From a virus, in the IMG/VR virus record IMGVR_UViG_3300021197_000933, positions 2,670 to 66,669 of that record: a stretch of 64,000 bases of DNA, one strand, 5' to 3'. Of the stretch, positions 9,097 to 59,724 are shown one piece after another (position 1 is the first letter of the stretch; the number at the start of each line of letters is the position of its first letter). A program made the translations under genes and the position numbers. The notes below the pieces were generated by a model. It was not told the origin of the DNA, made no database searches, and saw only the letters and a program-made list of their open reading frames with translations.

Positions 9097-11711
9097 TACG
9101 GACTGTCCTCTTCGTCAGACCTACCAGAATCTGGGGCCTGTGTTGCATCTTTCCCCTTCTTCTTTTTCTTGTCTTCGGGGTTGGGGTTTGTAGACTTCTT
9201 CGATTCGTCAGACTTCTCTGTCTTGACTGTACTCGCCGCCTTAACCTCGCCCGCTGTGTTGAGATCAGTCTTACCGTTAGCGTTCTCCGGTGTAGGTGAC
9301 CGGGGCTCACCTTTCTTCTTTGCGGCTGCAGCTGCGGCGGCAGAGTTAGCGGGAGGTGCACTACGACCATAAGATGACGTACCTCCGGGGTCCGTGGCTA
9401 CATCCTGCACACCACCCTCTTCGAGACTGAACTCTCCGGGTAAGGGCGCTTTCGACCGATCCTTTACGGCAGCTGCTGCTTTAGCTGCTTGAGCTGGAGG
9501 CTTAGGCTCACCTGCGTCCGCTGCTTCTTGTGCAAGAAGCTCCCGCATGAACTTCGCGTCACCCTTCTGGACTCGGTAATCAGGAAGGCGATCACCCACA
9601 AAGGTATCAGTGACGCCCTTAGGGATGATCCGCTTTTCACCGCTTCCCTCGTAGTGGGTTTGCTCCCGTGCTTTCTTCGTCGCAACGGCAGATACGGGTA
9701 GAGCCCCGCTGGGACCTCTCTCAGTGTCTATTCCCTGACCTGGCTTAGGATCGGGGTAAGTACCCTTGTATCGCTCAGGAATCTCAGAGTCTCTGAACGT
9801 GATCCCCATTGATGTGTACGTTCGACCCTTAATCAACTCTCGCGGCTTGTCGGTAGTCTCGACACCCTGACTAGAAAGGAACTGCTTACGTCCTTGCTGG
9901 AGCAGCTTCTCAGTCTCTTCAGGGCTACCAGAGTACCCCAGGGCACCCACTGTAGACACGAGCTCGTCAGAGAATGGACGCGACTTTACCTTCATGTCGC
10001 TGTACATCAAGACGCTTTCTTCTTCTACCTTCTCGCCGTCATCGCGAGTAAACGACTTGTATTTAGTCGCCACTTGGGAGGGTAGATCCATCACCTTGCC
10101 GATAACAGCAGGGTCATCTACCTTAGTCAGAGCTTGAGTGTTGTGGTCGTAAGCAAAGACAACATCACCAAACCGGACATAAGCTTGCCGCTCTTTCTTA
10201 TCGATTACAAAGCGCCCGACTTCTACGTCAGCCTGAGCATTGGCCCTGTCGTATTCCGCCTTACTCATGTAGCCTTCATCTTGGTCGAGGCTACGAGTAG
10301 CGTACACACCCTCAGCTACTTCCTCTGAAGGTCGGGTTGCGGTAAGGTCACCCGTGGCTTCCAGCTGCTTAAAAGCATCCGCCATCTTGCGCCGACGTAC
10401 AGGTGACCCCAAGGCAGCACGCCCACCAGGTAGCTTCATCACGACGTCGACAATGCCGATCTGATCCTTGTCAAATACCTTAGTGCCGCCACTGAGCGGC
10501 AAGATACGAATCTGACCTTCTCGATCGCTGGCGTGTACGGGTTGACGGAAGCCACGGCCAATGATGTTGCCGTCCTTGTCACTGATCTGAACGATCTCAT
10601 CCGTAGTCTGATTGAGCATCAGTCCGTAGTCGCCCGGCTGCTTAGCTGACTCAGAGAACCACTGCCCAACTGCCTTCTCGTCATTCGGGCCAGGCATGTA
10701 CTTCCCGGCTTCCGTTTTGTAGCCAACCGCAATGCCGCGATCATCAGCCCACCGCTGGAACTTCTCCGTCTTTACAAGTGACTTCCAGTTCTTCGACTCT
10801 CCGCCCAGCTCGCCCATCAGCCGCGTTACTTCACCTTCAACCTTCTGGATAAGGGAATCCCTCTCCATCAGGTCCTGTTCTGCTTCCGCCACCTCAATGG
10901 GGTCGATCTCAGCCTTCGCACCTAAGTCGACATTGACTGACTTAAATTTCTCTCGAGCATCAGCAAATACGTTGTCAGCCTCTTCTTGGTTTCCCTGCGC
11001 GAGACTCTTTTCAGCCTTAGCTAACAGCCCCTTTACCTGATCAAACCCATCCAAGGCAGTGGTCATCGACTCCTTGCCCTTCTGGTACTTCTCAATCATA
11101 CCGCCAGGGCCGATTAACCTGGTTCTCGTGTTGGTCTGAATCCGGTTTCCGAGCTCCGTTAGTATGGCCTCGCCGTTTTCGTCGTACTGAACATTACCCT
11201 GCTTGTCTACTTGGACGACGGGCAGCGCCCTGTTCATTTCACTAAATGTCGAGACAAACCGTGGCGAGTCCATGCTTATGGGTATCGCACTGTTAGCGAT
11301 AGATCCGGCTACCGTTCCCCACGCTATAGCGGGGGGACGGTTGATAGCCGCGGCCCTAAACGCACCGATTATTTTAGGGTAAGCGTTCGTAGTGTCTGCA
11401 TGGTAGTCAGTCCAGCTCTTTAGAGCCGTCTCCGTGAGACTGTACATCCCCTTGAGATTTTCCTTCTCAAGACCACCTTCAATCTTATCCGCTTCAGTCT
11501 GGAACTTCATCAGAGCCGCTACTCGGCGCTGATTAGCGTTAATCGTTGCAATCTTCTGTTTAGCGTATGTCGACCGCTTAGACTTTCTCTCAGACTGAAG
11601 AAAGTCGGCGTAAACATTTATTAACTGACGAGTCTCGCTCTTTTTATCTGTAGGTAGGCTTTCTGTAGCTGCACTGTACGCCTGAAACTCGCCCCATGAA
11701 TTACGTGCCAT
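9096..11711 (-). CDS. Putative internal virion/ejection protein (~870 aa)
   Basis: Long helical ORF, likely start MARNSWG at 11711; podovirus ejection-protein position. Confidence 0.6.
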   Translation of the reverse strand: MARNSWGEFQAYSAATESLPTDKKSETRQLINVYADFLQSERKSKRSTYAKQKIATINANQRRVAALMKFQTEADKIEGGLEKENLKGMYSLTETALKSWTDYHADTTNAYPKIIGAFRAAAINRPPAIAWGTVAGSIANSAIPISMDSPRFVSTFSEMNRALPVVQVDKQGNVQYDENGEAILTELGNRIQTNTRTRLIGPGGMIEKYQKGKESMTTALDGFDQVKGLLAKAEKSLAQGNQEEADNVFADAREKFKSVNVDLGAKAEIDPIEVAEAEQDLMERDSLIQKVEGEVTRLMGELGGESKNWKSLVKTEKFQRWADDRGIAVGYKTEAGKYMPGPNDEKAVGQWFSESAKQPGDYGLMLNQTTDEIVQISDKDGNIIGRGFRQPVHASDREGQIRILPLSGGTKVFDKDQIGIVDVVMKLPGGRAALGSPVRRRKMADAFKQLEATGDLTATRPSEEVAEGVYATRSLDQDEGYMSKAEYDRANAQADVEVGRFVIDKKERQAYVRFGDVVFAYDHNTQALTKVDDPAVIGKVMDLPSQVATKYKSFTRDDGEKVEEESVLMYSDMKVKSRPFSDELVSTVGALGYSGSPEETEKLLQQGRKQFLSSQGVETTDKPRELIKGRTYTSMGITFRDSEIPERYKGTYPDPKPGQGIDTERGPSGALPVSAVATKKAREQTHYEGSGEKRIIPKGVTDTFVGDRLPDYRVQKGDAKFMRELLAQEAADAGEPKPPAQAAKAAAAVKDRSKAPLPGEFSLEEGGVQDVATDPGGTSSYGRSAPPANSAAAAAAAKKKGEPRSPTPENANGKTDLNTAGEVKAASTVKTEKSDESKKSTNPNPEDKKKKKGKDATQAPDSGRSDEEDSP

Positions 11712-12349: not shown

Positions 12350-13228
12350 CTATAGAAACGTGACTACACGCGCACCGCGTACCCCAAAGTCAGCCTTCGC
12401 GTTTAACATCATATGATGTTTACGTAGAGACTTCGAGTACTTTAAGTAAGCGTATCGTGCTTGATGCTCGTAGGGGTTAGACCGAGTCAGAAACACCTTC
12501 AGTGCCAGCTCGTGCCACCCTCTTTTAATGCCGTGTGTAGCGCTCGTGTACGACAAACCTGGTGTCAGCATCAAGTGATGATGCCTCTGCACAGCTGAGT
12601 GAGCTTCAGTCTGAACCCAGCGACGATAAGGTTTCTGGTACCGGTAGAACTTGTGAAAACCCCCATCTTCGGAGGGCTTACCCGCAAGATTACATGCAGG
12701 CCAAGAGCAGTTTGGAGGTGACTCTCTATAAGTGTTGTCGATGCTCACACCGTCGTAAAAAGCCTGCGTCACAACGTGAAGATTAGATGTAACGTCTTCG
12801 TCCCTAAAGATGTCTGTTTGCCCCTCAGCCACAAACCAAGCATTGTGAGACATAAAGAACGACCACTGCAAAAATCCCACAGTGACATCGTAAGGCTGGT
12901 ACCACCTAATACCGGCCCCGCCTACAGTCTTAAACTGCCGATCTTGGTTAGCGGGAGACGTCCACTGCTTCGAGTTTCCTCCAATCGCGTCACCATAAAA
13001 AGCAGTGGGCTCAAGGCAAGTCTCGCCTCGAGTTAGTACGGCTTGGTCGGGCATAATCATGTGCCGTTTAATCTGAAACTCAGACGACGTAGATGCACCA
13101 CTCAAACGATCAGTAGTGATCGCTCCAGCATTGACGCTGTTCTGTACTTTTAAGATGTTGCCATTGTGGTCACTCGCATCAAAAGGAGAGCCATCTACGT
13201 AGCTATAGTCGAGTATGACTGAAGACAT
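12350..13228 (-). CDS. Virion/tail-associated hypothetical protein
   Basis: 292-aa ORF in the tail operon. Confidence 0.6.
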   Translation of the reverse strand: MSSVILDYSYVDGSPFDASDHNGNILKVQNSVNAGAITTDRLSGASTSSEFQIKRHMIMPDQAVLTRGETCLEPTAFYGDAIGGNSKQWTSPANQDRQFKTVGGAGIRWYQPYDVTVGFLQWSFFMSHNAWFVAEGQTDIFRDEDVTSNLHVVTQAFYDGVSIDNTYRESPPNCSWPACNLAGKPSEDGGFHKFYRYQKPYRRWVQTEAHSAVQRHHHLMLTPGLSYTSATHGIKRGWHELALKVFLTRSNPYEHQARYAYLKYSKSLRKHHMMLNAKADFGVRGARVVTFL

Positions 13229-13233
13229 AAAGA

Positions 13234-15477
13234 CTAATCCTTCTTACGCTTAAGATTGAGCATCGACATACTGCATATACCAAACTCAAGCATAGGTGCC
13301 TGTATTGTGTACTCTCTGGGGAAACCAAAACGCATACCCGTCTCGAGCTCTTTTGGTTTCCCCCTACTCCAGAAGTAATCCTGCCACGTGTCAGACCCGC
13401 CATGTTCCGTACATGCAGTGCTTGTAGAAAACACGCCGATGTCGCCTATCTCCCATGAGGGGCTACTATCACCTGTAGTGGTGCTGGGGGGCGCAAACAT
13501 AGTGCTGCCATCAAGAACAAACATCAGACTGGCATGAATACCGTCGTTCCATTTCTTCGCACCGTCGTAGAGATTCCTTCTATCTTTACCGCCTTTCTGG
13601 GCTTCTTCATAGCCTGCATCAAAGTCTTCAGCCTCCAGCTCGTCTGGTAAGACGAGACTGAGGTTGTAGTTGAGATTACGACCCTGCCAATTGTGCCCAT
13701 TAAAATGAACGCGTGACGCTCGATCGAATCGCCATGTCTTATCTTTAGAGGTGTCGTTAATCTTCGTGTTGTACTCTCGATGACCGATGCACAGATTAGC
13801 TATCGAATCTAACAAGCGTTCTTTCATGGGTACGTTGCCGCGAGGTACGATCCTCGTAATATCAACGTCGGCAAACACGAGCAACAAGCTGGAAGATGTC
13901 ATTTCTGGACTGGAGTTAGACACCATCATCAAGTCCCCCTTCAGAGACTGAAGCATCCTCCAACCTACGTTATTCGCCAGAGTCGGTGAGTCAGAAGAGT
14001 TGATCCCGCCTAAGTCCATACCATGAAGAGTCTCGTAAGTGTCCCAGCCCCAATAGTTGTCGTTCTGACCGGATCCACCAGGAAGAACTGTAAACGACGG
14101 TCGGTCTGCAGTTACAGTCTTACGTGCGTATGCTTGAACAATACTTGTTAAGTGCTCTTGTCGTATCGAGTTGGGTTTAATAGCGACCGCAGGTATGTCG
14201 TTACAGAATGCCTCTAAAGTTTGAGTCGGTAAGTTCATGCTAAGAGGATCTTCCGTCGAGAACGGCTCCAATGATCTTGCACTTAAAGACTGCTGAGAAG
14301 ACTGGTCACGAGGAATCTCAACCACAGAAAGCTGTCGGTTAAAGACAGCAACAACGTCATTCGGAAGATCAAGGTCAGATTCAGCCGCGTTCAGTCTACG
14401 GGCAACTATCTCAATCTTATGAGAACCAGAGCCAGCGCGAACAACAGTGCTAAGGCGAGTACCAAAGATCTCAGGGCCTATGCCAGCTGCACGAACATCA
14501 GGTTGGCGTGTGCCCGGCATCTTCTGATTTATACTGCCGCCACTTGGCGTCGAGTAACCCGCATCGTAGTCGTCGGTGTGCACTGCATCGTCGTCCATTA
14601 GACGGGTGGTTATGTGCCTTGCGCCCAGAGGTGTTCGCGAGTGTGTGTTTCGCTTCCCAGTGATGGTGTCTTCCATTATCTGACCATCCACTCGAAGCGC
14701 AAACTGGATGTCAGCTGGGCTCCATCCCATCGATACGTGGTGATGCCCTGCTCTGTTAGGGTTTTGTATCTCCATCGCAACTGGGGGTACAAACCTTACG
14801 TTGTTATCGCGGTGCGCATACAGACCCAGTGCTTCAGGATCGAGAGCCGGGTTCTCTCCGAGACCTAGTGATGCAGGCATCATCGCGGGATCGATGAACT
14901 CGTCGACCGTAACTCCAAACCCGTTTCTAAAGTACTGAACAAACGCGTTGATCCAGAGGTCTACCTCTCCTACCGAAGACGTCTCGACGTATCCGTCAAC
15001 CTGAACAGTTGTAGGTCGAGCCGCCCCCGTTATTGGATCAGATGGCAGCTGCTTCTTTACACCGTCACCTAAAGGGACCCATCCCCCGCCCTTACCGATG
15101 ATTCTCACATTCTCCTGGCAGTAGTCTACAACCTTAAGGGTTTCGTCCTTAAGGGAGTAGGCGGCGTCCAAACTCTCTGAAGTAGCGTCTCCGTCTCCGT
15201 CACCCACAACTTTGTTTAAGAAGTTAGGCTGAATCGAAGCAGCAGCTTCATCCGGTGAATGGTTTAAGTAAGGGTGCGATATGATCTCTACGTAGTGATG
15301 CGTGACGTGTGCATCCTCATGAGTCTTTGCGTTCGCTACGAAGTCAGCCGCATTTAAGTTGTGCGCGTCAATGTTGCCTGCAAACAAGTCAGTGTAAGGC
15401 TGAAAGTCTTGGTTCATCTCTACGGGATCTAAGACATCACCTGTACGCAGGAATCGTTTACGGAAGACTGAAGGCAT
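13234..15477 (-). CDS. Tail-associated hypothetical protein
   Basis: 747-aa beta-rich ORF after the nozzle gene; N-terminus GDVLDPVEMNQDF resembles fibre/spike attachment segments. Confidence 0.55.
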   Translation of the reverse strand: MPSVFRKRFLRTGDVLDPVEMNQDFQPYTDLFAGNIDAHNLNAADFVANAKTHEDAHVTHHYVEIISHPYLNHSPDEAAASIQPNFLNKVVGDGDGDATSESLDAAYSLKDETLKVVDYCQENVRIIGKGGGWVPLGDGVKKQLPSDPITGAARPTTVQVDGYVETSSVGEVDLWINAFVQYFRNGFGVTVDEFIDPAMMPASLGLGENPALDPEALGLYAHRDNNVRFVPPVAMEIQNPNRAGHHHVSMGWSPADIQFALRVDGQIMEDTITGKRNTHSRTPLGARHITTRLMDDDAVHTDDYDAGYSTPSGGSINQKMPGTRQPDVRAAGIGPEIFGTRLSTVVRAGSGSHKIEIVARRLNAAESDLDLPNDVVAVFNRQLSVVEIPRDQSSQQSLSARSLEPFSTEDPLSMNLPTQTLEAFCNDIPAVAIKPNSIRQEHLTSIVQAYARKTVTADRPSFTVLPGGSGQNDNYWGWDTYETLHGMDLGGINSSDSPTLANNVGWRMLQSLKGDLMMVSNSSPEMTSSSLLLVFADVDITRIVPRGNVPMKERLLDSIANLCIGHREYNTKINDTSKDKTWRFDRASRVHFNGHNWQGRNLNYNLSLVLPDELEAEDFDAGYEEAQKGGKDRRNLYDGAKKWNDGIHASLMFVLDGSTMFAPPSTTTGDSSPSWEIGDIGVFSTSTACTEHGGSDTWQDYFWSRGKPKELETGMRFGFPREYTIQAPMLEFGICSMSMLNLKRKKD

Positions 15478-33813: not shown

Positions 33814-34169
33814 ACGCTCTCCTGTAGTCGCGATGAGTATAACGGGTCTGAGGGTATGCCGCAATGGTAAGGTGTTTTGAAAAATACCTCCGGTCCGGGA
33901 AACGCTCTTCCGGTAGGGACCCATATACACACAGATGCGGGGGGTGGGGGGTCACGTCGCCCGGCCGACCTGGCGGAGGGGCGGACCTGGCACAGGCGCG
34001 CCGGTACCTCTGGGGGGATGGCGGTATCACTGTGGAGAGAGACCTCTCCTCTCCGCGCGGGGAGGATCGATCCGGTGAGGCTGACTAGCTCAGCGACTCT
34101 GCCACTGGGCTCAGAGTGTCGGCGCTGACTGGCTCAGCTAGCGATCGCCTCAGTATCAGCGGAGGATCA

Positions 34170-34200
34170 GACAGCTGGCGGACAGCTGGCGGACAGCTGG
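34170..34200. repeat. Tandem 11-bp repeat GACAGCTGGCG x~3
   Basis: Seen directly in non-coding DNA. Confidence 0.85.
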
Positions 34201-34382
34201 AGGGCGATGCCTATTGCGAGCCTCTGAAGGGGTCTACACTGCGTTTTGATCGTCTGCCTATGTCATGACACCATGGTATAGGGTAAACGGCAGCCTGCGC
34301 GAATTCGATGTTTTGAGCACGGCCTAACCACTGGACGTCTCTACATATTGACTTTAATCACGGAATGATTGAGCATTTGTGC

Positions 34383-34411
34383 TTTACACCACAGCGGTAA
34401 CCCTGTAAGAT
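34383..34411 (+). promoter_or_regulatory. Sigma70-like promoter
   Basis: TTTACA-17-TAAGAT. Confidence 0.6.
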
Positions 34412-34463
34412 CAGGCTTGAGCACTGAAGCTCACCGGGCCTCGAGCCCACTGGAAAAACGACT

Positions 34464-35429
34464 ATGCGAACAAACCTCGCAACCACGACAGCCATCCGTT
34501 CACTCATCACCCCTCAGGCTGACTACCGAGTCAACCCAGCGCTGAGACGGGCCAACCCTGCACCACCACCAGTCCATGCGTCGAAGACGCTCTGTCTGGT
34601 TGGCTCCTCTGCCAAGCACGCCACCTATGAGGAGGTCTGCGCGGTGATCCCCACCAGAGAGAACACGTACCATGAGAAGACGGGCAACAGCGTCTACAAG
34701 GTGGTCGAATACGCGACTCCGATCGACGGGCTCCGCGACCATGTCAGTGACGCCCTCGGTAGTGATCCCGTCTATGAGACCTACGCCCTCAGTAAGGACG
34801 GGCAGCAAATGTACGGCCGCATAGCGTGGGACTCTGGTGTCATGGGCGCCATGATCGAAGTGGTCTTCCGGTCGAGCTACAACGGCACGATCTGTGTGGA
34901 GTGGGGAATCGGCCAAGGCACCTTCATTTGCGCGAACGGCATGATCAGCGCCGATCAGATCATGAAGATCAAGCACACTCACAATGTGATCGAGCGCTTC
35001 ACCGAGTCGCTGACAGACGGTACCTACGGTGTAGCCGAGCGGATCGAGCAAGCCCGTAAGCGTCTCGACTGGGTCGATGGGCTTCGTGAGATCCCGATGT
35101 CTGACGACCTGTTCAACGCCTTTGTAGGCGTGCTCCAGGGTAGGACAGTGGGTACCAGCCAGAAGGCCATGCTGACCCCTCACAGGGCCTCTGCTGCGCG
35201 CAAGTACTGGGGAGCGTGTCACGCTGGTCAACTGCATGACGATCACGGACAGCGCAACCTGTACAGCGGCTATCAGGCGCTGACTGGGGCCAACCACCTC
35301 AGCACCCCGCGCAACTTCCTGCAGGATGGCGCTGGTGTGGACTTCATGGTCGAGGCCGTGGAAGCGTCAGGCGGGAGCTTGACGGGCATCCCAGCGTTCT
35401 CATTCGACATCACCGAATACGACGCATAA
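34464..35429 (+). CDS. DUF932/DUF945-like early protein
   Basis: DGQQMYG..SSYNG..FICANGM..KHT motifs. Confidence 0.75.
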   Translation: MRTNLATTTAIRSLITPQADYRVNPALRRANPAPPPVHASKTLCLVGSSAKHATYEEVCAVIPTRENTYHEKTGNSVYKVVEYATPIDGLRDHVSDALGSDPVYETYALSKDGQQMYGRIAWDSGVMGAMIEVVFRSSYNGTICVEWGIGQGTFICANGMISADQIMKIKHTHNVIERFTESLTDGTYGVAERIEQARKRLDWVDGLREIPMSDDLFNAFVGVLQGRTVGTSQKAMLTPHRASAARKYWGACHAGQLHDDHGQRNLYSGYQALTGANHLSTPRNFLQDGAGVDFMVEAVEASGGSLTGIPAFSFDITEYDA

Positions 35430-35437
35430 GCACAGCG

Positions 35438-35473
35438 AGATCGGGGCGGGCTCAGTGTCCGCCCCGTGATCTC
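35438..35473 (+). other. Intergenic hairpin (processing/attenuation site?)
   Basis: GAGATC-GGGGCGG..CCGCCCC-GATCTC stem with no U-tail. Confidence 0.5.
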
Positions 35474-35515
35474 TGCACTTAGGCAGAAACCAACCAACAA
35501 CTGAGAGAAAACGAC

Positions 35516-36004
35516 ATGAAAGTAACCGACATCAACCCCGCTATTGCCGCTGCCCTCCTGAAGGCACCCCACGCCTCAGGTGGTGGGAGCACCCTCAAAG
35601 ATGCGGCCAAGGGCCTCAGCGCTGGCGTGCACTACATCACGGGCGTGGTCGAGATCGCTGGTCATATCCGCAAGAGTGACCCGCCCACGGCCTACCTCAA
35701 GAACACGGTAGACAAGAAGGCCATGGCCAACGTGCTCAACTGGGCGCTCCAGAGGATGAGCGAGACCGAGTACAATGCTCTGATCCGTCAGCTAGACCTG
35801 ATCATGGCAGGCGAGGAGCGCAACCACGCTCACCCCTTGCGCGTGGTCGAGGTCGTCAAGGCGTTGACCAAGAGCACCACCGTACAGCCTCAGGGCTCAG
35901 TGACATGGGCGGGTACCATGACCATCGATGACCTCAACGTGTTCGAGGAGACCCTCGAGGACATCACCGCCACCGGGCTCACCCTCTGCAAAGGGGGTGA
36001 GTGA
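35516..36004 (+). CDS. Hypothetical early protein
   Basis: 162 aa, ends GGE*. Confidence 0.75.
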   Translation: MKVTDINPAIAAALLKAPHASGGGSTLKDAAKGLSAGVHYITGVVEIAGHIRKSDPPTAYLKNTVDKKAMANVLNWALQRMSETEYNALIRQLDLIMAGEERNHAHPLRVVEVVKALTKSTTVQPQGSVTWAGTMTIDDLNVFEETLEDITATGLTLCKGGE

Positions 36005-36267
36005 TGGGACCGCGGCCAACACTGAACACGCTACAGAATGAACAGCTACGCCTCTACGTGGACGCTGTGATCGAGACCAGGAAGCTTGTCGACAACCCGC
36101 CCGAGGACGTTGACGCAGTGATGGGAGGGGCCCGGGCGGATTATGCTCTGTCCTACTGGTCTCGCCGCGCTGATGCTGAGGAGCACAGGCGGAACATGTA
36201 TCACGCCTTTGTGAGCTCACTCGAGTGGGCGGCTGACAGTGCAAGTGAGGTGACCCATGGGTCTTGA
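36001..36267 (+). CDS. Hypothetical early protein
   Basis: Coupled through GTGATG. Confidence 0.7.
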   Translation: MMGPRPTLNTLQNEQLRLYVDAVIETRKLVDNPPEDVDAVMGGARADYALSYWSRRADAEEHRRNMYHAFVSSLEWAADSASEVTHGS

Positions 36268-36463
36268 TGCACTGCTCATGTCGACGGGGCTGCTGGGATG
36301 CAGCGTGGTTTACCTCAGGCTGTGGCTGTGTCCCGTGCGGGTCAAGATGATCCGGCGGGACTGGGCACGGCTCCGGTGCGAGTGGCGGGGTGACAAGTAC
36401 ACTCCACCGCCCGGACAGCGGAGGCTCGGGCGCACACTGCTCAGCCAGCTCGTTGGCCGATAG
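36257..36463 (+). CDS. Small hypothetical protein with hydrophobic N-terminus
   Basis: GAGGTG SD. Confidence 0.55.
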   Translation: MGLDALLMSTGLLGCSVVYLRLWLCPVRVKMIRRDWARLRCEWRGDKYTPPPGQRRLGRTLLSQLVGR

Positions 36464-36553
36464 CTATGTCCGCAGGGGAGGACGGGTTTCGTTCTCTCCT
36501 GTGAACCCTCAACGCGTCAAGGCGGGACGCGCAACATGAACATGGAAACGACT

Positions 36554-36763
36554 ATGGATTACGACTTAGCAGACGGGCCACGCAGCAGAGTGCACGTGGC
36601 GAATAACGAGCGCTCTCACTTCGTCCGCATCAACGGGACACGGATCGAGGCAGCACTCGACGAGAACAGCAGACGCCGACGAGAGAAGGCGGAGATGGGC
36701 TTCGGGTACGGGCGGATGTGTGATGACAACCACGGCATAGACAGAGACACCTCAGTCGAGTAG
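36554..36763 (+). CDS. Hypothetical early protein
   Basis: GGAAACGACTATG start motif. Confidence 0.6.
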   Translation: MDYDLADGPRSRVHVANNERSHFVRINGTRIEAALDENSRRRREKAEMGFGYGRMCDDNHGIDRDTSVE

Positions 36764-36781
36764 CACAGACGCTGTGCAATC

Positions 36782-36811
36782 AAGGGTCACCCTCAACGGG
36801 GTGGCCCTTTT
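36782..36811 (+). terminator. Intrinsic terminator
   Basis: AAGGGTCACCC..GGGTGGCCCTTTT. Confidence 0.75.
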
Positions 36812-36829
36812 GCGTGTCACCAGGTCGAC

Positions 36830-37030
36830 CCGCTGAGCGCCAGCTGAGCCAGCCCCACCAGCTGAGCCGGGCCGGAGTGTCAGACGGTGCCGGGGTAGCG
36901 GGGTATCGATGCCGGGATGCCGGGCCGGAGCTGCGGAGGTGATGCCGGGCCGGGGTGCCGGGGTGTGCCGGGGTGAGCGGGGCGACGCCGGAGATGAAGC
37001 CGGGCGCCGCCGGGGAGCTCACGCCGGGGA
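36830..37030. repeat. Strand-polarised GCTGAGC then GCCGG(G) motif array
   Basis: About 14 GCCGG copies counted by eye, all in one orientation. Confidence 0.75.
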
Positions 37031-37195
37031 GTTGTCAATGTCGTACGGGATGCCGAGCGGTTTGAGTTGCTCATTCACAATGCGAATCACGTCCTCGAGG
37101 CGACCGACGGTGGCCCAACTGACGCAGGTGTGGCACTCAGGTGAGGTGAACACCTGAGCCACGAAGCTACTGCCGATGATGATGAAGCGTACCAT
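37019..37195 (-). CDS. Small hypothetical protein
   Basis: TGATG-coupled, GGAGG SD. Confidence 0.55.
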   Translation of the reverse strand: MVRFIIIGSSFVAQVFTSPECHTCVSWATVGRLEDVIRIVNEQLKPLGIPYDIDNSPA

Positions 37196-37404
37196 CAGTG
37201 CCTCCCCGCCAGAGAGAGACCCGGTGTGAGCAAGCACCGGAGGAGCTCCCCTACCTCGGGGTCACCGTCGGGATTGAACCGGGCCTGCGCTTCCTCCAGG
37301 CTCACGCCCTCGAGCTGCGCGACGGCAGCCCGGAGGTTGAGGTGTCGGGCCTCGGGCCCGGTGTCGTGTCGTGCTTCAGTTGTACCGATGATCTTGCGAT
37401 TCAT
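37195..37404 (-). CDS. Small hypothetical protein
   Basis: ATGA-coupled, GGAGGT SD. Confidence 0.65.
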   Translation of the reverse strand: MNRKIIGTTEARHDTGPEARHLNLRAAVAQLEGVSLEEAQARFNPDGDPEVGELLRCLLTPGLSLAGRH

Positions 37405-37967
37405 GATGCACCTCCCGAGACAAAGGGACGAGCGAACCAAAGACGCTTCATCTCAGCGAGCTGTTCGCACACACGATCTGCGGCTGCGTTCAGATCCATC
37501 CCGAGAATGAGGGGGACCTCTACGGTGAACGATATCTCACTGTCCCCCATGTTGACACCGCGCGAACCATCCCAAGTGATGGTAGTGGAAGACTCACAGA
37601 GCCATTCCCTTCCTTCCTCGCACGTATACGTGTCTTCTAAACGGTACTCTATAATGCTGCGAACTTCAGCGAAGCATGGTCGATCGATGCCAAAGGTGTA
37701 CTCCCCGTTCTCACAGATGACTGAGCTGATGCCTTGAGCACCCAGCACCTTGAGCGCAGCTGAAGCGTGGTCGTAGAGTCGAGCTCCCTCGCGCCAGTCT
37801 TGAGCCCACTCAGGTCGAGTGTCGCTGTCGTAAGCGTTGCCCGTGTACATTACGGCCAGCAACAGGCGAACGATGAGCTCCCTGTCGCGGATAATATCGG
37901 CCCCCTGTGTGGGGTTGTCCAGAAACGCGAGCTGATCGCGCCAGTTGTTTGTGTCGTTGGTGGTCAT
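37401..37967 (-). CDS. Hypothetical acidic early protein
   Basis: 188 aa, GAGGTAAACGACATG start. Confidence 0.75.
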   Translation of the reverse strand: MTTNDTNNWRDQLAFLDNPTQGADIIRDRELIVRLLLAVMYTGNAYDSDTRPEWAQDWREGARLYDHASAALKVLGAQGISSVICENGEYTFGIDRPCFAEVRSIIEYRLEDTYTCEEGREWLCESSTTITWDGSRGVNMGDSEISFTVEVPLILGMDLNAAADRVCEQLAEMKRLWFARPFVSGGAS

Positions 37968-38087
37968 GTCGTTTACCTCATGTGGGTTGCGCCCCGGCCA
38001 ACTGCCTGAGCTACGCTCATAGTACCGCCTCGGTATAGGTAAAGTCTACCCCTTCGCAGACTCTTGACATTTACTTGACATCTCCGT

Positions 38088-38300
38088 GGCTCAGCTGGCC
38101 CAGCCACTCAGCCACTCAGACCATGGCCGGGATGCTGAGGCGGGGACCTGGTCATAGCCGGGCCGGAGTCTCATCGCCGGGCCGGAGGGCAGCTGTCGGT
38201 GAAGCGTGTGCGCATGGCCGGGCCGGCGGAGAAGAGGACGGCAACGGAGGGCAGGCGGACGGCAGCAGGGCAGGACCGCAGGGCAGCAGGACCGCAGGCT
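38088..38300. repeat. CTCAG / GCCGGGCCGG / GCAGG motif array
   Basis: Seen directly between divergent units. Confidence 0.65.
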
Positions 38301-38345
38301 AAACGCAAGATGGCGAGGCGGTTTGATCTTTCTTGCGGGTTACGC

Positions 38346-38374
38346 TTGACGTACCTAAACCGCTCTGGTATAAC
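38346..38374 (+). promoter_or_regulatory. Sigma70-like promoter
   Basis: TTGACG-17-TATAAC with an upstream TG. Confidence 0.6.
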
Positions 38375-38411
38375 TGCAGGGAGACACACAAGATCTCAAA
38401 GGAAAAACGAC

Positions 38412-38615
38412 ATGACAAAACGCAATCCGAAGATGGATCCCAAGAGCTACCTGACGGTGACATGGACCTGCCCTACTGACGGACTGGTCACCCGAGGTTT
38501 CGACGACACAAGACACGGCAAGATCCGAGCGTCTTGGTGCTGTGACTGGCTCGATGAAGAAGGCATTCAGTATCAGACAAACTTCAACCGCAAGCCCAGC
38601 GAGGTGACAGCATGA
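38412..38615 (+). CDS. Small hypothetical early protein
   Basis: AGGAAAAACGACATG start (MTKRNPKMDPK). Confidence 0.7.
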   Translation: MTKRNPKMDPKSYLTVTWTCPTDGLVTRGFDDTRHGKIRASWCCDWLDEEGIQYQTNFNRKPSEVTA

Positions 38616-39292
38616 GTCGGCGATTCAAGATGCTCTGGGTGGGACGATCCAAGAACGACAAGACCGGCGATATCCCTCAAGGGTACGTAGGCGAGGACAA
38701 GGAACAGACCGAGGCATCATGCGACGGCTGCCCCATGCGCAAGGGCGGGTGCTATCACTGGCTCGGAGCTCGACGCGCACAAGCCAGCATGCAGCGTGCC
38801 TATGTCAATAAGCCTGAGCGGTACTCACTTGCACACGCACTCGGCGAGTCAAGGCGGACCGCCCGCTACGCACGTGGGGCGGTGGGCGGTGACCCATGGG
38901 TATTCACCAGCGAAGAGGTCATAGAGTGGTACCGTCAAGCACGAGGAGCGGGGCTCAAGGGGCTGTTGCTCTACACGCACTTTGCTGCGGACAAGGGTGC
39001 CCACCTTAAGGGCTTGGCTATGGCCTCGGTCCACTCGCTCGATGAGGCGGACGATAGGATCCGCGAGGGCTGGCGGGCTGCAATGGTCTCCGACTTCAGA
39101 GCTCCAGGGTCCAAGCGCTCGACGCTCAAGCACCTACCTGAATGGAAAGGTGAGAAGTTCATCACGCCTGACGGGAACGAGGGTACGCCCTGCCCAGCAC
39201 AATACAAGGCGGTAGACTGCAACGCTTGCGGACTGTGCGACGCGCAGCGTGAAGGCAAGCCCGCTCCCCTAATCATCTTCTTCCAGCACTGA
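38612..39292 (+). CDS. Cys-rich radical-SAM-like phage protein (gp88/DUF7227-like)
   Basis: NDKTG..SCDGCPMRKGGCY..GD..YTH..MASV..CPAQ..CNACGLC. Confidence 0.7.
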   Translation: MSRRFKMLWVGRSKNDKTGDIPQGYVGEDKEQTEASCDGCPMRKGGCYHWLGARRAQASMQRAYVNKPERYSLAHALGESRRTARYARGAVGGDPWVFTSEEVIEWYRQARGAGLKGLLLYTHFAADKGAHLKGLAMASVHSLDEADDRIREGWRAAMVSDFRAPGSKRSTLKHLPEWKGEKFITPDGNEGTPCPAQYKAVDCNACGLCDAQREGKPAPLIIFFQH

Positions 39293-39300
39293 GGTACCCC

Positions 39301-39639
39301 ATGCCATGGATCAGACAATACATCGCACCCGAGACGGCCTGCCTAATCGAGCAGACGGACTTGCATACTGGCGAGGTGACCACGTTCACGGTGTACCGCA
39401 CGTACATCGACGACGACTTCACCCAGCCGTCGCCCTACCGATTCACTCTGGATCGAGAAGAGCGATGGTCGTGTGAGTTCGACATTAGAAAGTGGCCCAC
39501 ATACAACCCCGACTTGGCGCCGAGGCAGGTGATACAGGGCGCCGTTGATCGGGGATGGGTGGAGCTCGACGGCATCTCGTTCTGGACGCTGGTCGACGGG
39601 AAGCCTGGACCCTGGGAGGTTGACGCCGTAGCCCGTTAG
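39301..39639 (+). CDS. Hypothetical protein
   Basis: 112 aa, GAGGT SD. Confidence 0.7.
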   Translation: MPWIRQYIAPETACLIEQTDLHTGEVTTFTVYRTYIDDDFTQPSPYRFTLDREERWSCEFDIRKWPTYNPDLAPRQVIQGAVDRGWVELDGISFWTLVDGKPGPWEVDAVAR

Positions 39640-39649
39640 CGGTTACTCT
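39620..39649 (+). promoter_or_regulatory. Sigma70-like promoter for the candidate sRNA
   Basis: TTGACG-18-TACTCT with no plus-strand gene downstream. Confidence 0.55.
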
Positions 39650-39654
39650 CGAGG

Positions 39655-39758
39655 TGACACCGGGGACGGGTCAATTAAACAGTCAGTCATATGGTCGCAA
39701 GACCAGCGCCCGATCGGTAGGTTTAGTCGTTTTCCTCTGCCGGTCGGGCGCTCTGTTT
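39655..39758 (+). ncRNA. Candidate trans-acting antisense small RNA
   Basis: Promoter, GNRA hairpin (39692-705), and a 16-17 bp stem with G-U pairs only on the plus strand; the 14-nt loop is antisense to early-gene RBSs. Confidence 0.6.
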
Positions 39759-40008
39759 AGTAGCCGGAGCTCGCGCGCTTAGCCTTACTGCGACTGGCGA
39801 ATAGCGCGGGCTCGTCTTCCTGGTCCTCGAGCTGGTAGATCTTGGAGCTCGCCGAGCCCGACTGATCCTCGTCAGCTGAGGTGAATGAGATCGCCACTTG
39901 ATCCATGTTGCCGCGGATGGCCACGTGAGCTGGTGCACGCCAGACGCGCCGGCTCTTGCTCTTGCCGGTCTCGACGTTGTATTGAATCGAGAGGAGCTGC
40001 CGGGTCAT
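39757..40008 (-). CDS. Hypothetical protein
   Basis: TAATG-coupled, AGGAG SD. Confidence 0.6.
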   Translation of the reverse strand: MTRQLLSIQYNVETGKSKSRRVWRAPAHVAIRGNMDQVAISFTSADEDQSGSASSKIYQLEDQEDEPALFASRSKAKRASSGY

Positions 40009-40346
40009 TAGTCGAGCTCCTTCTTGCCGCCGTGGTTGTCAGAGTCATCGTGCGAGTCATCTTGCACATAGCTCATGAGCCTATCGGCTTGACCCTTGTG
40101 CATCTCAGATGCTTTGTAGAGCTCCTCGGCGATCTGCTTCATGTCATCGGCATGGCCGGCGGGTGACGAGGCCGGTGTAGACTTAGCCTCAGCCGGGGCC
40201 GGGCCGCATGGGCCGCCGGCGTCAAGTCCCTCGGCGTGGAGCATCTGCTTCCGAGCCTGTTGATAGCCCATGCCGGGGTCAATGATAGATGGACCGGCTA
40301 TTCGGCGCTTCACAACTATGAAGGAGGGCTCGTCGGATGAGTGCAT
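40008..40346 (-). CDS. Hypothetical protein
   Basis: 112 aa; IAEELYKASEMHKGQADRL motif. Confidence 0.65.
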   Translation of the reverse strand: MHSSDEPSFIVVKRRIAGPSIIDPGMGYQQARKQMLHAEGLDAGGPCGPAPAEAKSTPASSPAGHADDMKQIAEELYKASEMHKGQADRLMSYVQDDSHDDSDNHGGKKELD

Positions 40347-40379
40347 GTCGGATCTCCATTTACCTAATGAGCGTATCAG

Positions 40380-40913
40380 TTATTTAGACTGAGCACCAGC
40401 AACTATCCGAGCCAGCCTCTCGTCAAAGTCTACATCAATGCTTACTGCCACCGTGGCTTGGTCAGTTGAAGCAGCTGGTGTAATGCCACAGCGATCAAGG
40501 ATTGCCTCACTCGCCTTCACTCGGTCGCGCGGGGCAGCTGCGAGGTCTGTTGCCACGTCAAGAAGAGAGCTCAAAGCAGCCTCAGCGGCCTCCTCTAAGC
40601 CCTCACCAAGTACCGACCGCCTCCGTTCCTGGCCCGCCGCGATGGCGGACTGACCATCGGGGTCAGTGGACCAGCCCCACACGGTGGACGGCCTCACTCC
40701 AAGTCGACGAGCGGTTGATCTAACTGTGTGCCCAGCCTCCAGAAGTCTATACGCAAGTGCCTGAGTCTCTGGTTCATCTGAGAATCGGACTTGCTCAGCC
40801 AGCATTGCAGCTACCTCAGCTTCTCCAGCGGGCACAATGGTTGTTGGAACTACATGCAGAGCTGAGTTCGCAGGTGAAACCACTGATTCATTTGTGTCGT
40901 CATCGCTATCCAT
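40380..40913 (-). CDS. Putative terminase small subunit (HTH)
   Basis: HTH TVRSTARRLGVRPSTVWGW plus RVKASEAILDRCG; likely start ATG 40913. Confidence 0.6.
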   Translation of the reverse strand: MDSDDDTNESVVSPANSALHVVPTTIVPAGEAEVAAMLAEQVRFSDEPETQALAYRLLEAGHTVRSTARRLGVRPSTVWGWSTDPDGQSAIAAGQERRRSVLGEGLEEAAEAALSSLLDVATDLAAAPRDRVKASEAILDRCGITPAASTDQATVAVSIDVDFDERLARIVAGAQSK

Positions 40914-44138: not shown

Positions 44139-44332
44139 TGCCCAAGCAAGAACTAACCATTGAACACCTACGCGACCAAGCCTTCATTGTACGGGGTGAG
44201 GAGTGGATTGAGGTCAACATTGTCAATGGAGCCCTGGTTGTCACAGCCAACTCCAATCTTAAAAGCGAACACGATGTACCCGTCTGCACCATTGATGCAG
44301 ATGGGAACATCACAATCAAAGGAGGTGAGTGA
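44135..44332 (+). CDS. Small cassette gene
   Basis: Flanked by GGAGGTGAGTGATG junctions. Confidence 0.75.
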   Translation: MMPKQELTIEHLRDQAFIVRGEEWIEVNIVNGALVVTANSNLKSEHDVPVCTIDADGNITIKGGE

Positions 44333-44571
44333 TGGACATGACCGCACGCGCGACTGACATTCAGCTCATACTGACACGACGAGAGTTCAACCTGGTGACC
44401 AAAGCACTGACGGGTAAGCTCAGCCCAGAGCCTCACCCCAAGTGTAGCGATGACGATGTACCTGACGCATACAACCTCGGGCAGCGCCTGATGGAGAAGC
44501 GCATCCGGTGTGCCGAGTACGAGGTAGAGCTGCTCGAGAAAGCCTTAGAGAAAGCAAAGGGAGGTGAGTGA
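44329..44571 (+). CDS. Small cassette gene
   Basis: Flanked by GGAGGTGAGTGATG junctions. Confidence 0.75.
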   Translation: MMDMTARATDIQLILTRREFNLVTKALTGKLSPEPHPKCSDDDVPDAYNLGQRLMEKRIRCAEYEVELLEKALEKAKGGE

Positions 44572-44852
44572 TGAAGTACCACTACGACAGCAAATGGAAC
44601 GACGAGCCTCAGATTCACGGGTGCTGGTTCATTGACACTGACGGTGTGACCGCTCTGCAATGGACCTGCACGAATGGAGCCAGCGGCGACATACTCCTGT
44701 CGGATGGTCGTGTGATCAAAGAGCGGCAGTACACTGGTCGTGCATTTGCATCGCACCCAGACCAGAACCCCAACATCGGGAAGGACTTAGACGGAGTCTA
44801 CTTCTCGGTACACAACAATCAGAGCTTCAAGACTGATGAAGGAGGTGAGTGA
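44568..44852 (+). CDS. Small cassette gene
   Basis: Flanked by GGAGGTGAGTGATG junctions. Confidence 0.75.
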   Translation: MMKYHYDSKWNDEPQIHGCWFIDTDGVTALQWTCTNGASGDILLSDGRVIKERQYTGRAFASHPDQNPNIGKDLDGVYFSVHNNQSFKTDEGGE

Positions 44853-45148
44853 TGAGGATCTACCAAGTATATCGATGGGATCACACCGACGGACCAACGG
44901 TTCGCTTCTACGCCAACAAAGCAGAGGCTACACGAGCAGCCAAAACCTTCGTAAAAGAAACCGACAATGACGGGGAGATAGAAGTATCCGTACTCGAACT
45001 GCCCACAAAGAAGTCGGAACTAATCTTCGCATTGAACTCGATAGACGCAACAAATGCGCACTACAGCGCCACACTGGTTGCATCGTATGACTCAGAGGAA
45101 GCACCTCTCCCCATCTTTGAAAACTTCTATAGCGATGGAGGTGAGTGA
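44849..45148 (+). CDS. Small cassette gene
   Basis: Flanked by GGAGGTGAGTGATG junctions. Confidence 0.75.
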   Translation: MMRIYQVYRWDHTDGPTVRFYANKAEATRAAKTFVKETDNDGEIEVSVLELPTKKSELIFALNSIDATNAHYSATLVASYDSEEAPLPIFENFYSDGGE

Positions 45149-48598: not shown

Positions 48599-48676
48599 TG
48601 TTCCACCATGGTAAGAGTCATTTATTAAACAGTCGTGTCGTGACCAGGTGCCCTCAGTAGGGTACCCAGCTCAGCT

Positions 48677-48706
48677 AATGTATCGACCCGCAACAATGCG
48701 TGTCAA
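48677..48706 (-). promoter_or_regulatory. Sigma70-like promoter of the helicase gene
   Basis: TTGACA-18-TACATT. Confidence 0.7.
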
Positions 48707-51003: not shown

Positions 51004-51070
51004 AGTGTCTCCGGGGTTGATAGCGCTACCGTTTAGTCAGTCAGACACGGTAGCTTTAGTTGTCGTGGAA

Positions 51071-51099
51071 AGTGTATGGTACTAATACCGCTGCGTCAA
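51071..51099 (-). promoter_or_regulatory. Sigma70-like promoter
   Basis: TTGACG-17-TACACT. Confidence 0.75.
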
Positions 51100-59670: not shown

Positions 59671-59695
59671 GGTGTCGTTCTCCTTGGATGACGTG

Positions 59696-59724
59696 ATTCT
59701 ATACAGGGTCTACCACTGCGTCAA
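59696..59724 (-). promoter_or_regulatory. Sigma70-like promoter of the replication operon
   Basis: TTGACG-17-TAGAAT. Confidence 0.8.

Follow-up and report, generated by a model that had tools for sequence, protein, structure and literature searches.

For CopA/CopT of R1 and RNA I of ColE1, negative feedback on replication is known to work by loop-initiated RNA-RNA pairing to a replication gene's leader. In phages, according to the accessible part of PMC4825925, the CI RNA of P4 blocks expression of the phage's own replication genes by antisense pairing at two separate leader sites. The accessible part of PMC12197685 describes the c4 RNA of P1/P7 as a trans-acting antisense RNA of ~77 nucleotides (nt) whose loop-presented sequences bind around the ribosome-binding site (RBS) of phage mRNA and block translation, and the VpdS RNA of vibriophage VP882 as acting on both phage and host mRNAs. 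Here we report on an element between two convergent genes of an uncultured marine phage, which on sequence comparison most likely represents a new family of phage small RNAs (sRNAs) that would repress replication genes; the DNA analyzed (the window) is 64 kb of the 66,669-bp virus contig IMGVR_UViG_3300021197_000933, and the features are listed in Table 1. To our knowledge, temperate phages of model hosts are the source of almost all phage sRNAs characterized so far, which have their roles in immunity or in the control of host genes. Literature searches and Rfam gave no description of this RNA.

The predicted sRNA resembles P4 CI in being a small phage antisense RNA with two contacts, and it is likewise predicted to act on the leader of a replicative helicase gene. 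CI, however, is processed from the transcript that carries its target and causes premature transcription termination in the lysogenic state, whereas the sRNA here would have a promoter of its own and is 9-20 kb distant from its targets, which are on the other strand; at least one of its sites covers a Shine-Dalgarno sequence, and no integrase or resolvase was found in the genome here (tyrosine and serine recombinases, PF00589 and PF00239, looked for in the 94%-complete genome). With c4 it has in common complementary sequences in a loop directed at a ribosome site; c4 differs in controlling the antirepressor for immunity in a temperate plasmid-prophage, whereas the targets predicted here are replication genes. 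We found no sequence or Rfam relationship to P4 CI, no homology to c4 and no Rfam match to C4. The two predicted antisense contacts, of a linker and of a loop, support the view that the RNA works like c4 and CI, not that it belongs with them, and the lack of homology, the own promoter, the distant targets and the absence of any sign of lysogeny place it outside both families. A first-pass annotation of the window had proposed a two-seed antisense RNA at this place and had added that no such regulon was known; the latter was overstated, as P4 CI and P1 c4 RNAs work alike, and the interpretation as a whole proved partly right. VpdS, PreS and DicF are also phage-encoded, terminator-ended and trans-acting on several targets, but their sources are temperate phages or prophages with cultured hosts, and they depend on Hfq and have experimental support, whereas the sRNA here is predicted from sequence and its supported targets are the phage's own replication genes. 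CopA/CopT and RNA I differ in being cis-encoded and fully complementary to their target, the present sRNA being trans-encoded, with short, partly wobble helices and more than one target.

Relatives of the element were collected with protein anchors. The DUF7227 gene led to four IMG/VR contigs; the element is present at 74% identity in G001 (66,130 bp) and as a diverged copy without the GNRA hairpin, with loop ACCUCUCC, in G002 (73,693 bp). A metagenome scan with the anchor protein A2 returned 29 loci, of which 2 only carry the element, L078 (a near-identical strain) and L079 (= G001), and in three exact-pattern scans of IMG/VR (47, 11 and 8 stretches) the G001 contig was the sole true homologue each time. 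Hairpins with the same loop word in L029 and L045 were judged to be chance matches. The helicase used as anchor gave 28 loci, and on these a covariance model made with the three copies known at first (window, G001, G002) was applied together with a promoter regular expression. Seven more copies were recovered (L129, L127, L133, L114, L120, L121, and L113), so that the family counts 10 members, the window and 9 of the 28 helicase-anchored loci. Every copy lies downstream of the helicase and on the opposite strand. A MAFFT alignment of 7 full-length members was structurally inconsistent and was not used; the covariance-model alignment, in which two matches are on the reverse strand, was kept out of the pair counts. 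In Rfam, no family reaches its gathering score over the whole window, and a search at E-values up to 10 gave chance-level matches to rdlD (18 bits vs a threshold of 50) and mir-341 only.

The structure, the strand, the conservation of the promoter and the covarying complementarity described below all come from comparison of these sequences. The plus strand folds far better than shuffled sequences, with a z-score of -3.75 for 39620-39775 and of -7.4 for 39656-39762, and the z-scores for three copies are -7.4, -6.1, and -4.05. Three hairpins are predicted. The inner CCG/CGG of hairpin 1 becomes GGG/CCC in G002. Hairpin 2, the GNRA hairpin already seen in the first pass, has a U-A pair replaced by C-G and a G-C pair by G-U in G001; it is replaced by other tetraloop hairpins in other members, and clade B lacks it. 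The long stem of hairpin 3 was also recognized at first, and we confirm it at 17 bp with three G-U pairs that exist on the plus strand only. A covariation test with three sequences gave 6 pairs changed on both sides. Over the 10 sequences, 91.1% of the cells are paired and 8 of the 17 pairs (20 cells) have changed on both sides, with 0 of 500 shuffles as good, in statistics that ignore shared ancestry; when the partner was slid by 1-3 columns as a control, pairing fell to 37-45%. The stems hold 119 Watson-Crick pairs, 11 G-U, 0 A-C, and 3 other mismatches. A-C here would be G-U on the other strand, so this asymmetry points to selection on a plus-strand RNA, and by this count the conserved structure is one that acts as a plus-strand RNA. 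The loop of hairpin 3 is identical over 12 nt in the window and G001 though 7 of the 17 stem pairs have changed.

The element is non-coding by comparison. To align the window with G001 and G002, indels of 1-2 nt have to be placed at several positions; these are not multiples of three, and the 42-amino-acid (aa) open reading frame (ORF) at 39654-39782 is not kept. A small minus-strand ORF after the hairpin was also considered and rejected, being not conserved in G001. In a 97.6%-identical strain, 51 differences are found over 2157 nt and 0 within 39535-39769 (0 in the 143 nt of 39620-39762 vs 2.4% overall), and three strain contigs show 0 differences across the element. In L120, L121, and L113 the tail right after the stem is U-rich, in two of them U7, which argues that hairpin 3 is very probably a genuine terminator of plus-strand transcription. 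A terminator scan did not call hairpin 3, the loop of which exceeds 8 nt.

The linker between hairpins 1 and 2 is the first candidate seed, and its core GUCAGUC is kept in 10/10 family members. In the window, the linker is the exact complement of positions -36 to -26 of the helicase leader, a match already reported in the first pass, and we find that the leader covaries with the linker in relatives. The 11-mer GACTGTTTAAT at 48624-34(-) occurs at only one further place in the window, in the element. G001 combines linker UUGAAUAGUC with leader GACUAUUCAA, the only two exact copies in that genome, and the window and G001 differ at two positions by changes in linker and leader alike (C-G to U-A and A-U to G-C). 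The linker of G002, UCAGUCCGAACAAAAGCU, pairs with GGUUUUUGUUUGGGUUGA at -43 to -26 over 18 bp (13 Watson-Crick and 5 G-U), all 5 non-Watson-Crick positions of this helix being G-U, and the helix of L127, with 14 Watson-Crick and 4 G-U pairs, contains more compatible changes. Compared with shuffled leaders, the genome's own pair gave P values of 0.0015 in the window (11 bp), 0.0045 in G001 (10 bp), and <0.0005 in G002 (18 bp), and cross-genome pairs scored below each genome's own. A linker-helicase leader helix of at least 9 bp is found at -49 to -20 in 8 of the 10 genomes, where the sequences differ and the changes are compensatory or wobble. In a 10x10 matrix of linkers against leaders, the diagonal sum was 263 vs an off-diagonal mean of 20.4 (label permutation P = 5e-5, ignoring shared ancestry). 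In these comparisons ungapped-helix scoring replaced RNAduplex on long sequences. The case for this predicted contact is one of position and compatible change, not of single-genome scans.

The same linker is complementary to a second leader, that of the gene for a 671-aa protein, where TGACTGACT lies in a hairpin loop at 51035-43(-). This complementarity, claimed in the first pass, is present, and the leader site has a matching linker in 3 genomes, which belong to two clades. G001 has the same loop word on a stem of entirely different sequence, and the G001 linker variant AGUCAGUUA still pairs with the site through G-U; in L129 the 671-aa leader carries UUGACUGAC at -43. Two observations were made on these leaders and operons. 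At clade C loci (L114, L113, L121, and others; ~7100-7160 and 9840-9900), the 671-aa leader contains ACCCAAAGC and the helicase leader GCUUUGGGU, on the same strand and mutually complementary, which could be mRNA-mRNA pairing or an inverted pair of DNA operators. At 12932-13420 of G002 (L124), the helicase operon (helicase, 181-aa gene, and 104-aa gene) runs into the sRNA terminator from the other side, so that read-through of the operon would be antisense to its own regulator.

The promoter-like block noticed in the first pass is indeed present upstream of the element. The pattern TTGAC[AG]-N17/18-TAnnnT has only 4 matches on both strands of the window, vs a mean of 1.5 in shuffles, and they lie at the element (39620) and 108, 96, and 54 nt before the ATG of the helicase, the 671-aa gene, and SNF2, respectively. 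G001 and G002 have this promoter class at the same four units, and 25 of the 28 helicase loci have a site of the class, ~130-260 nt ahead of the helicase match. Within the family, the block is at a fixed distance from the element in 7/10 members by the loose expression TTGACN-N17/18-TAnnnT, the other 3 being near-matches by eye. The block overlaps the end of ORF 39301-39639 in the window; an extra 102-aa ORF is inserted in G001, ending at the same TAG inside the block; and G002 has the block in non-coding DNA, 120 nt beyond the last ORF. As it is kept in three different coding or non-coding contexts, its conservation is not a coding artefact. The extra ORF of G001 (L001:1571-1879) sits between the orthologue of 39301-39639 and the element, and its last residues, EVDAVAR, are similar to RVDVLVR in the window, which suggests gene gain or loss with a junction just upstream of the -35.

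The terminal loop of hairpin 3 is the second candidate seed. Each of the ten loops is rich in pyrimidines and has at its end a UUUCC or CUCUCC-like word that resembles an anti-Shine-Dalgarno sequence, and the core GUCGUUU(U)CC is common to the window, G001, and L129, a distant member with a helicase of only 53% identity. Pairing of the loop with the ribosome site of SNF2, proposed in the first pass, is kept in 3/3 genomes checked, with different sequences in G002: AGGAGAACGAC over 11 bp, GAAAACGAC over 9 bp, and, in G002, AGAGGUCC over 8 bp (P 0.001, 0.018, and 0.014). Cross-pairs between the two sequence groups reach scores of only 9-15. Clade B has a further loop match, to the RBS of the gene that lies just before the 671-aa promoter; where the loop goes from CC to UU between L124 and L127, this RBS goes from GG to AA. 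A match of the loop to the start region of the helicase (7-11 bp, P 0.016-0.09) is seen in L129 and the clade C members, but not in clades A and B. A second proposed target, PolA, did not hold, as the site is not conserved in the nearest relative, G001. When the whole window was scanned for duplexes with the loop, many equally good sites were found inside genes, and 8 of the 40 top matches were at start codons. In L129 (15200-15530), six copies of GAAACGA(C), to which the loop is complementary, lie on both strands within ~330 bp at ~1 kb from the sRNA; the cluster could be an iteron array.

With a probability of about 70%, we read the element as the gene of a plus-strand, non-coding sRNA of ~105 nt with its own promoter, a terminal hairpin, and two seeds on replication mRNAs. 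The sRNA would be transcribed from its own TTGACG-N18-TAnnCT promoter and would end at the long GC-rich hairpin, which would also close the convergent gene block. The same promoter type would drive the helicase, 671-aa, and SNF2 units, so that production of the sRNA would go along with that of its targets. The linker between hairpins 1 and 2 would bind the helicase leader ~25-45 nt upstream of the start codon as well as, in some lineages, the hairpin loop in the 671-aa leader, and the pyrimidine-rich terminal loop would bind ribosome sites, that of SNF2 in the window phage and, for other lineages, the start region of the helicase or else a neighbouring gene. With one contact upstream of the ribosome site and one on the Shine-Dalgarno sequence or the start codon, the most likely effect would be repression of translation or destabilisation of the mRNA, and the outcome a delayed negative feedback limiting the synthesis of replication proteins. 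That the RNA is produced, and the sign of the regulation, its timing, and any role of a chaperone, are what we infer from this arrangement.

Several results weigh against this reading. The U-tract after the stem is weak in the window phage. A generic sigma-70 promoter scan misses the element site, because the -10 is poor and agrees with TATAAT at just 3/6 positions (T1, A2, and T6). The linker had been described as unpaired, and its sequence is there, but the minimum-energy fold pairs AUUAAACAG of the linker with the RNA's own 3' tail, CUGUUUAGU, so that the seed may be partly masked. In one marine metatranscriptome run, the element was represented by a single unstranded contig of 214 nt (39475-39688, depth 2.6), which runs across the proposed promoter and breaks off ahead of hairpin 2, unlike the predicted ends of the RNA; this contig may be DNA carry-over, and by itself it speaks neither for nor against a discrete sRNA. 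Any CU-rich loop matches Shine-Dalgarno sequences to some degree. In a single genome, 19 helices score higher than the linker-leader helix genome-wide when G-U is allowed, and the energies of long duplexes are unremarkable (RNAduplex, background mean -27), with own leaders ranking 37/2412, 15/452, and 19/324. L129 has no helicase-leader helix of at least 8 bp, that of L113 is found only far upstream, at -82, and clades B and C are without the 671-aa leader site. Shared ancestry, as said, is ignored by the covariation statistics. Finally, seven helicase loci with 8.5-10 kb of downstream sequence (L117, L122, L123, L126, L128, L132, and L134) have no model match at E up to 1, and the remaining helicase loci end too soon downstream to judge.

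A first alternative is that the element is only a bidirectional intrinsic terminator at a convergent junction, with incidental upstream hairpins and complementarities that come from chance or CU-rich composition. Like such a terminator, the element has a GC-rich stem at the end of convergent units, followed by a tail that is weakly U-rich in the window and U-rich in three relatives. It lies in a convergent gap, the base of the stem is GC-rich, and the stem of G002 lies directly against the stop of the convergent gene and has U-rich runs on both sides. Covariation in hairpin 3 does not by itself discriminate, as terminator stems covary too, and the many equally good loop matches inside genes fit a chance origin, with the anti-Shine-Dalgarno composition inflating the tests against shuffled loops. 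A terminator would, however, call neither for the conserved 12-19-nt loop, with its identity in G001 over a much changed stem, nor for a promoter-like block held at a fixed distance in three different contexts, nor for conservation of hairpins 1 and 2 and of the linker core. The strand asymmetry (11 G-U vs 0 A-C) and the covarying complementarity to distant leaders, with compensatory changes between the linker and a leader 9 kb away, also speak against it, and we consider that this explanation is improbable. As improbable, or slightly more so, is that the minus strand carries same-strand copies of a protein-binding motif in DNA or RNA (TGACTGACT, GACTGTTTAAT, and GGAAAACGAC), for instance an operator or iteron, the element being an extra site or a decoy; the first-pass annotation had itself named a "(C/U)GAC" motif as an alternative. 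The element and the helicase and 671-aa leaders do carry the same words in direct orientation on the minus strand, TGAC is repeated several times, and the GAAACGA(C) cluster of L129 is ~1 kb from the element; identical changes in two copies would, moreover, mimic covariation. Yet the differences between copies always keep the RNA pair as G-U (5/5 in G002, 4/4 in L127, and the 671-aa site of G001), whereas a DNA motif diverging at random is expected to keep G-U at a rate of roughly one in six for each site. Each genome has just two copies, without dyad symmetry, and the 671-aa site sits in a hairpin loop with a covarying stem.

The RNA could also be real and act mainly on host transcripts, or be a protein sponge or structural RNA, the complementarities inside the phage being secondary. 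The phage sRNAs PreS and DicF act on host genes, as stated in the accessible part of PMC12197685. Covariation with the phage's own leaders in several lineages makes such a main function very improbable here, and the sRNA with two seeds on replication mRNAs is the reading that we retain.

The first-pass annotation had further proposed that the loop controls a whole family of RBSs in early genes. The start-region strings that it had listed as targets are all present. Among 77 start regions, 5 share at least 8 nt with the complement of the loop and 3 share at least 9 nt, all five being in 34.4-41.8 kb, with P values of 0.0015-0.003 against loops shuffled with the UUCCUC end kept; these RBS-word sites are one sequence family, not independent events. 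The motif is kept in G001 at two orthologous starts and SNF2, where the proteins are only 58-66% identical, and shows no covariation. The plus-block genes of G002 have a different recurrent word, CAGGAnAACC, which is not complementary to the G002 loop. The regulon is thus kept in one close relative only and absent in the third lineage. A recurrent junction word, GGAGGTGAGTGATG, is found elsewhere in the window phage, and the junction GGAGGTGAGTG-ATG recurs at many starts (57100, 57298, 44321-45137, and others) as a second RBS-word family, so that such words can be explained without a small RNA. We consider the early-gene part of the model less likely than not. A broader version would make one dual-seed sRNA the timer of a virulent phage, produced from the promoter class of the replication module, with the linker shutting the helicase and 671-aa mRNAs and the loop shutting SNF2 and the plus-block family with GGAAAAACGAC; two temporal classes would go off at once and the RBS word would serve as an address tag. 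We regard this version as unlikely.

On a crude gene map made by codon usage, the element is flanked by the convergent ORFs 39301-39639(+) and 39757-40008(-), with a gap of 117 bp. The former is the last ORF of a plus-strand block (34464-39639) and the latter the final ORF of a minus-strand block that runs from 41610 down to 39757. The proteins encoded around the element are mostly of unknown function (DUF932, DUF7227, and a helix-turn-helix or small-terminase-like protein), and an 83-aa neighbour has only a near-identical cluster as relatives. The replication genes are in the minus-strand block from 46490 to ~63800 and encode the DUF927 + Cch-HTH helicase, the 671-aa protein, a UDG-PolA fusion, and the SNF2 helicase. 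The 671-aa protein, called an SMC-ATPase in the first pass, has no Pfam match, and that name was not confirmed. A DNA search of deposited phages with 39000-40400 gave no match, and the PolA and helicase proteins matched only distant deposited phages, at 22-29% identity. The G+C content of window positions 34000-40000 is 59-62% vs 50-55% elsewhere in the contig, and this block holds the genes with the GGAAAAACGAC ribosome-site word. In two more distant relatives, hairpins adjoin the DUF7227 gene or lie a few genes downstream (L003:6177-6218 and L004:2126-2160); the loop GUGGUGUUCYCC is common to both and the stems are different, and they may be another conserved-loop terminator or RNA. The G001 contig, classed as linear, has the same 30 bases at both ends (C1:49-78 and 66000-66029), which suggests a circular or terminally redundant genome.

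Table 1. Positions in the window of the predicted small RNA, its parts, its candidate targets, and the promoters of the same class.
Feature	Position	Strand	Remarks
Putative sRNA promoter	39620..39649	+	-35 TTGACG 39620-25, 18-nt spacer, -10 TACTCT 39644-49
Predicted small RNA, ~105 nt, ends inferred	39656..39762	+	minimum free energy -52.5 kcal/mol, z -7.4; covariance model match 39653-39762, 112.6 bits
Hairpin 1, UGAC-A-CCG GGGA CGG-GUCA	39655..39673	+	predicted fold; same shape in G001 and G002
Linker, candidate seed 1	39674..39692	+	AUUAAACAGUC 39674-84 matches helicase leader; AGUCAGUCA 39681-89 matches 671-aa leader loop
Hairpin 2, GGUC GCAA GACC, GNRA loop	39693..39704	+	predicted fold
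Hairpin 3, 17-bp stem 39705-21/39736-52, 14-nt loop UUUAGUCGUUUUCC 39722-35	39705..39752	+	probable terminator stem and candidate seed 2
3' tail CUGUUUAGUA	39753..39762	+	weakly U-rich, 4 U in 8
Candidate target in DUF927/Cch helicase leader, GACUGUUUAAU	48624..48634	-	-36 to -26 from ATG at 48598
Helicase promoter TTGACA-18-TACATT	48677..48706	-	same class as putative sRNA promoter
Candidate target UGACUGACU in leader hairpin loop of 671-aa gene	51035..51043	-	~-40 from start 51003
671-aa gene promoter TTGACG-17-TACACT	51071..51099	-	promoter-class search
Candidate target AGGAGAACGAC over SNF2 Shine-Dalgarno	59674..59684	-	pairs with hairpin-3 loop, 11 bp including one G-U; start 59670
SNF2 promoter TTGACG-17-TAGAAT	59696..59724	-	promoter-class search
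Candidate loop target, RBS GGAAAAACGACU of DUF932 gene	34452..34463	+	similar sites 35507-15, 36544-52, 38403-11, 37968-76(-)

The family described here occurs in uncultured marine phages without a detected integrase, and the targets with the best support are two of the phage's own genes, those of the replicative helicase and of SNF2, with which it apparently shares a promoter type. If confirmed, it would clearly exemplify RNA-based feedback on the replication of phage DNA outside the control of lysogeny, and regulator-target pairs would be readable from metagenomes by intermolecular covariation alone. It would also give a possible function to the recurrent ribosome-site words associated with start codons in phage genomes.

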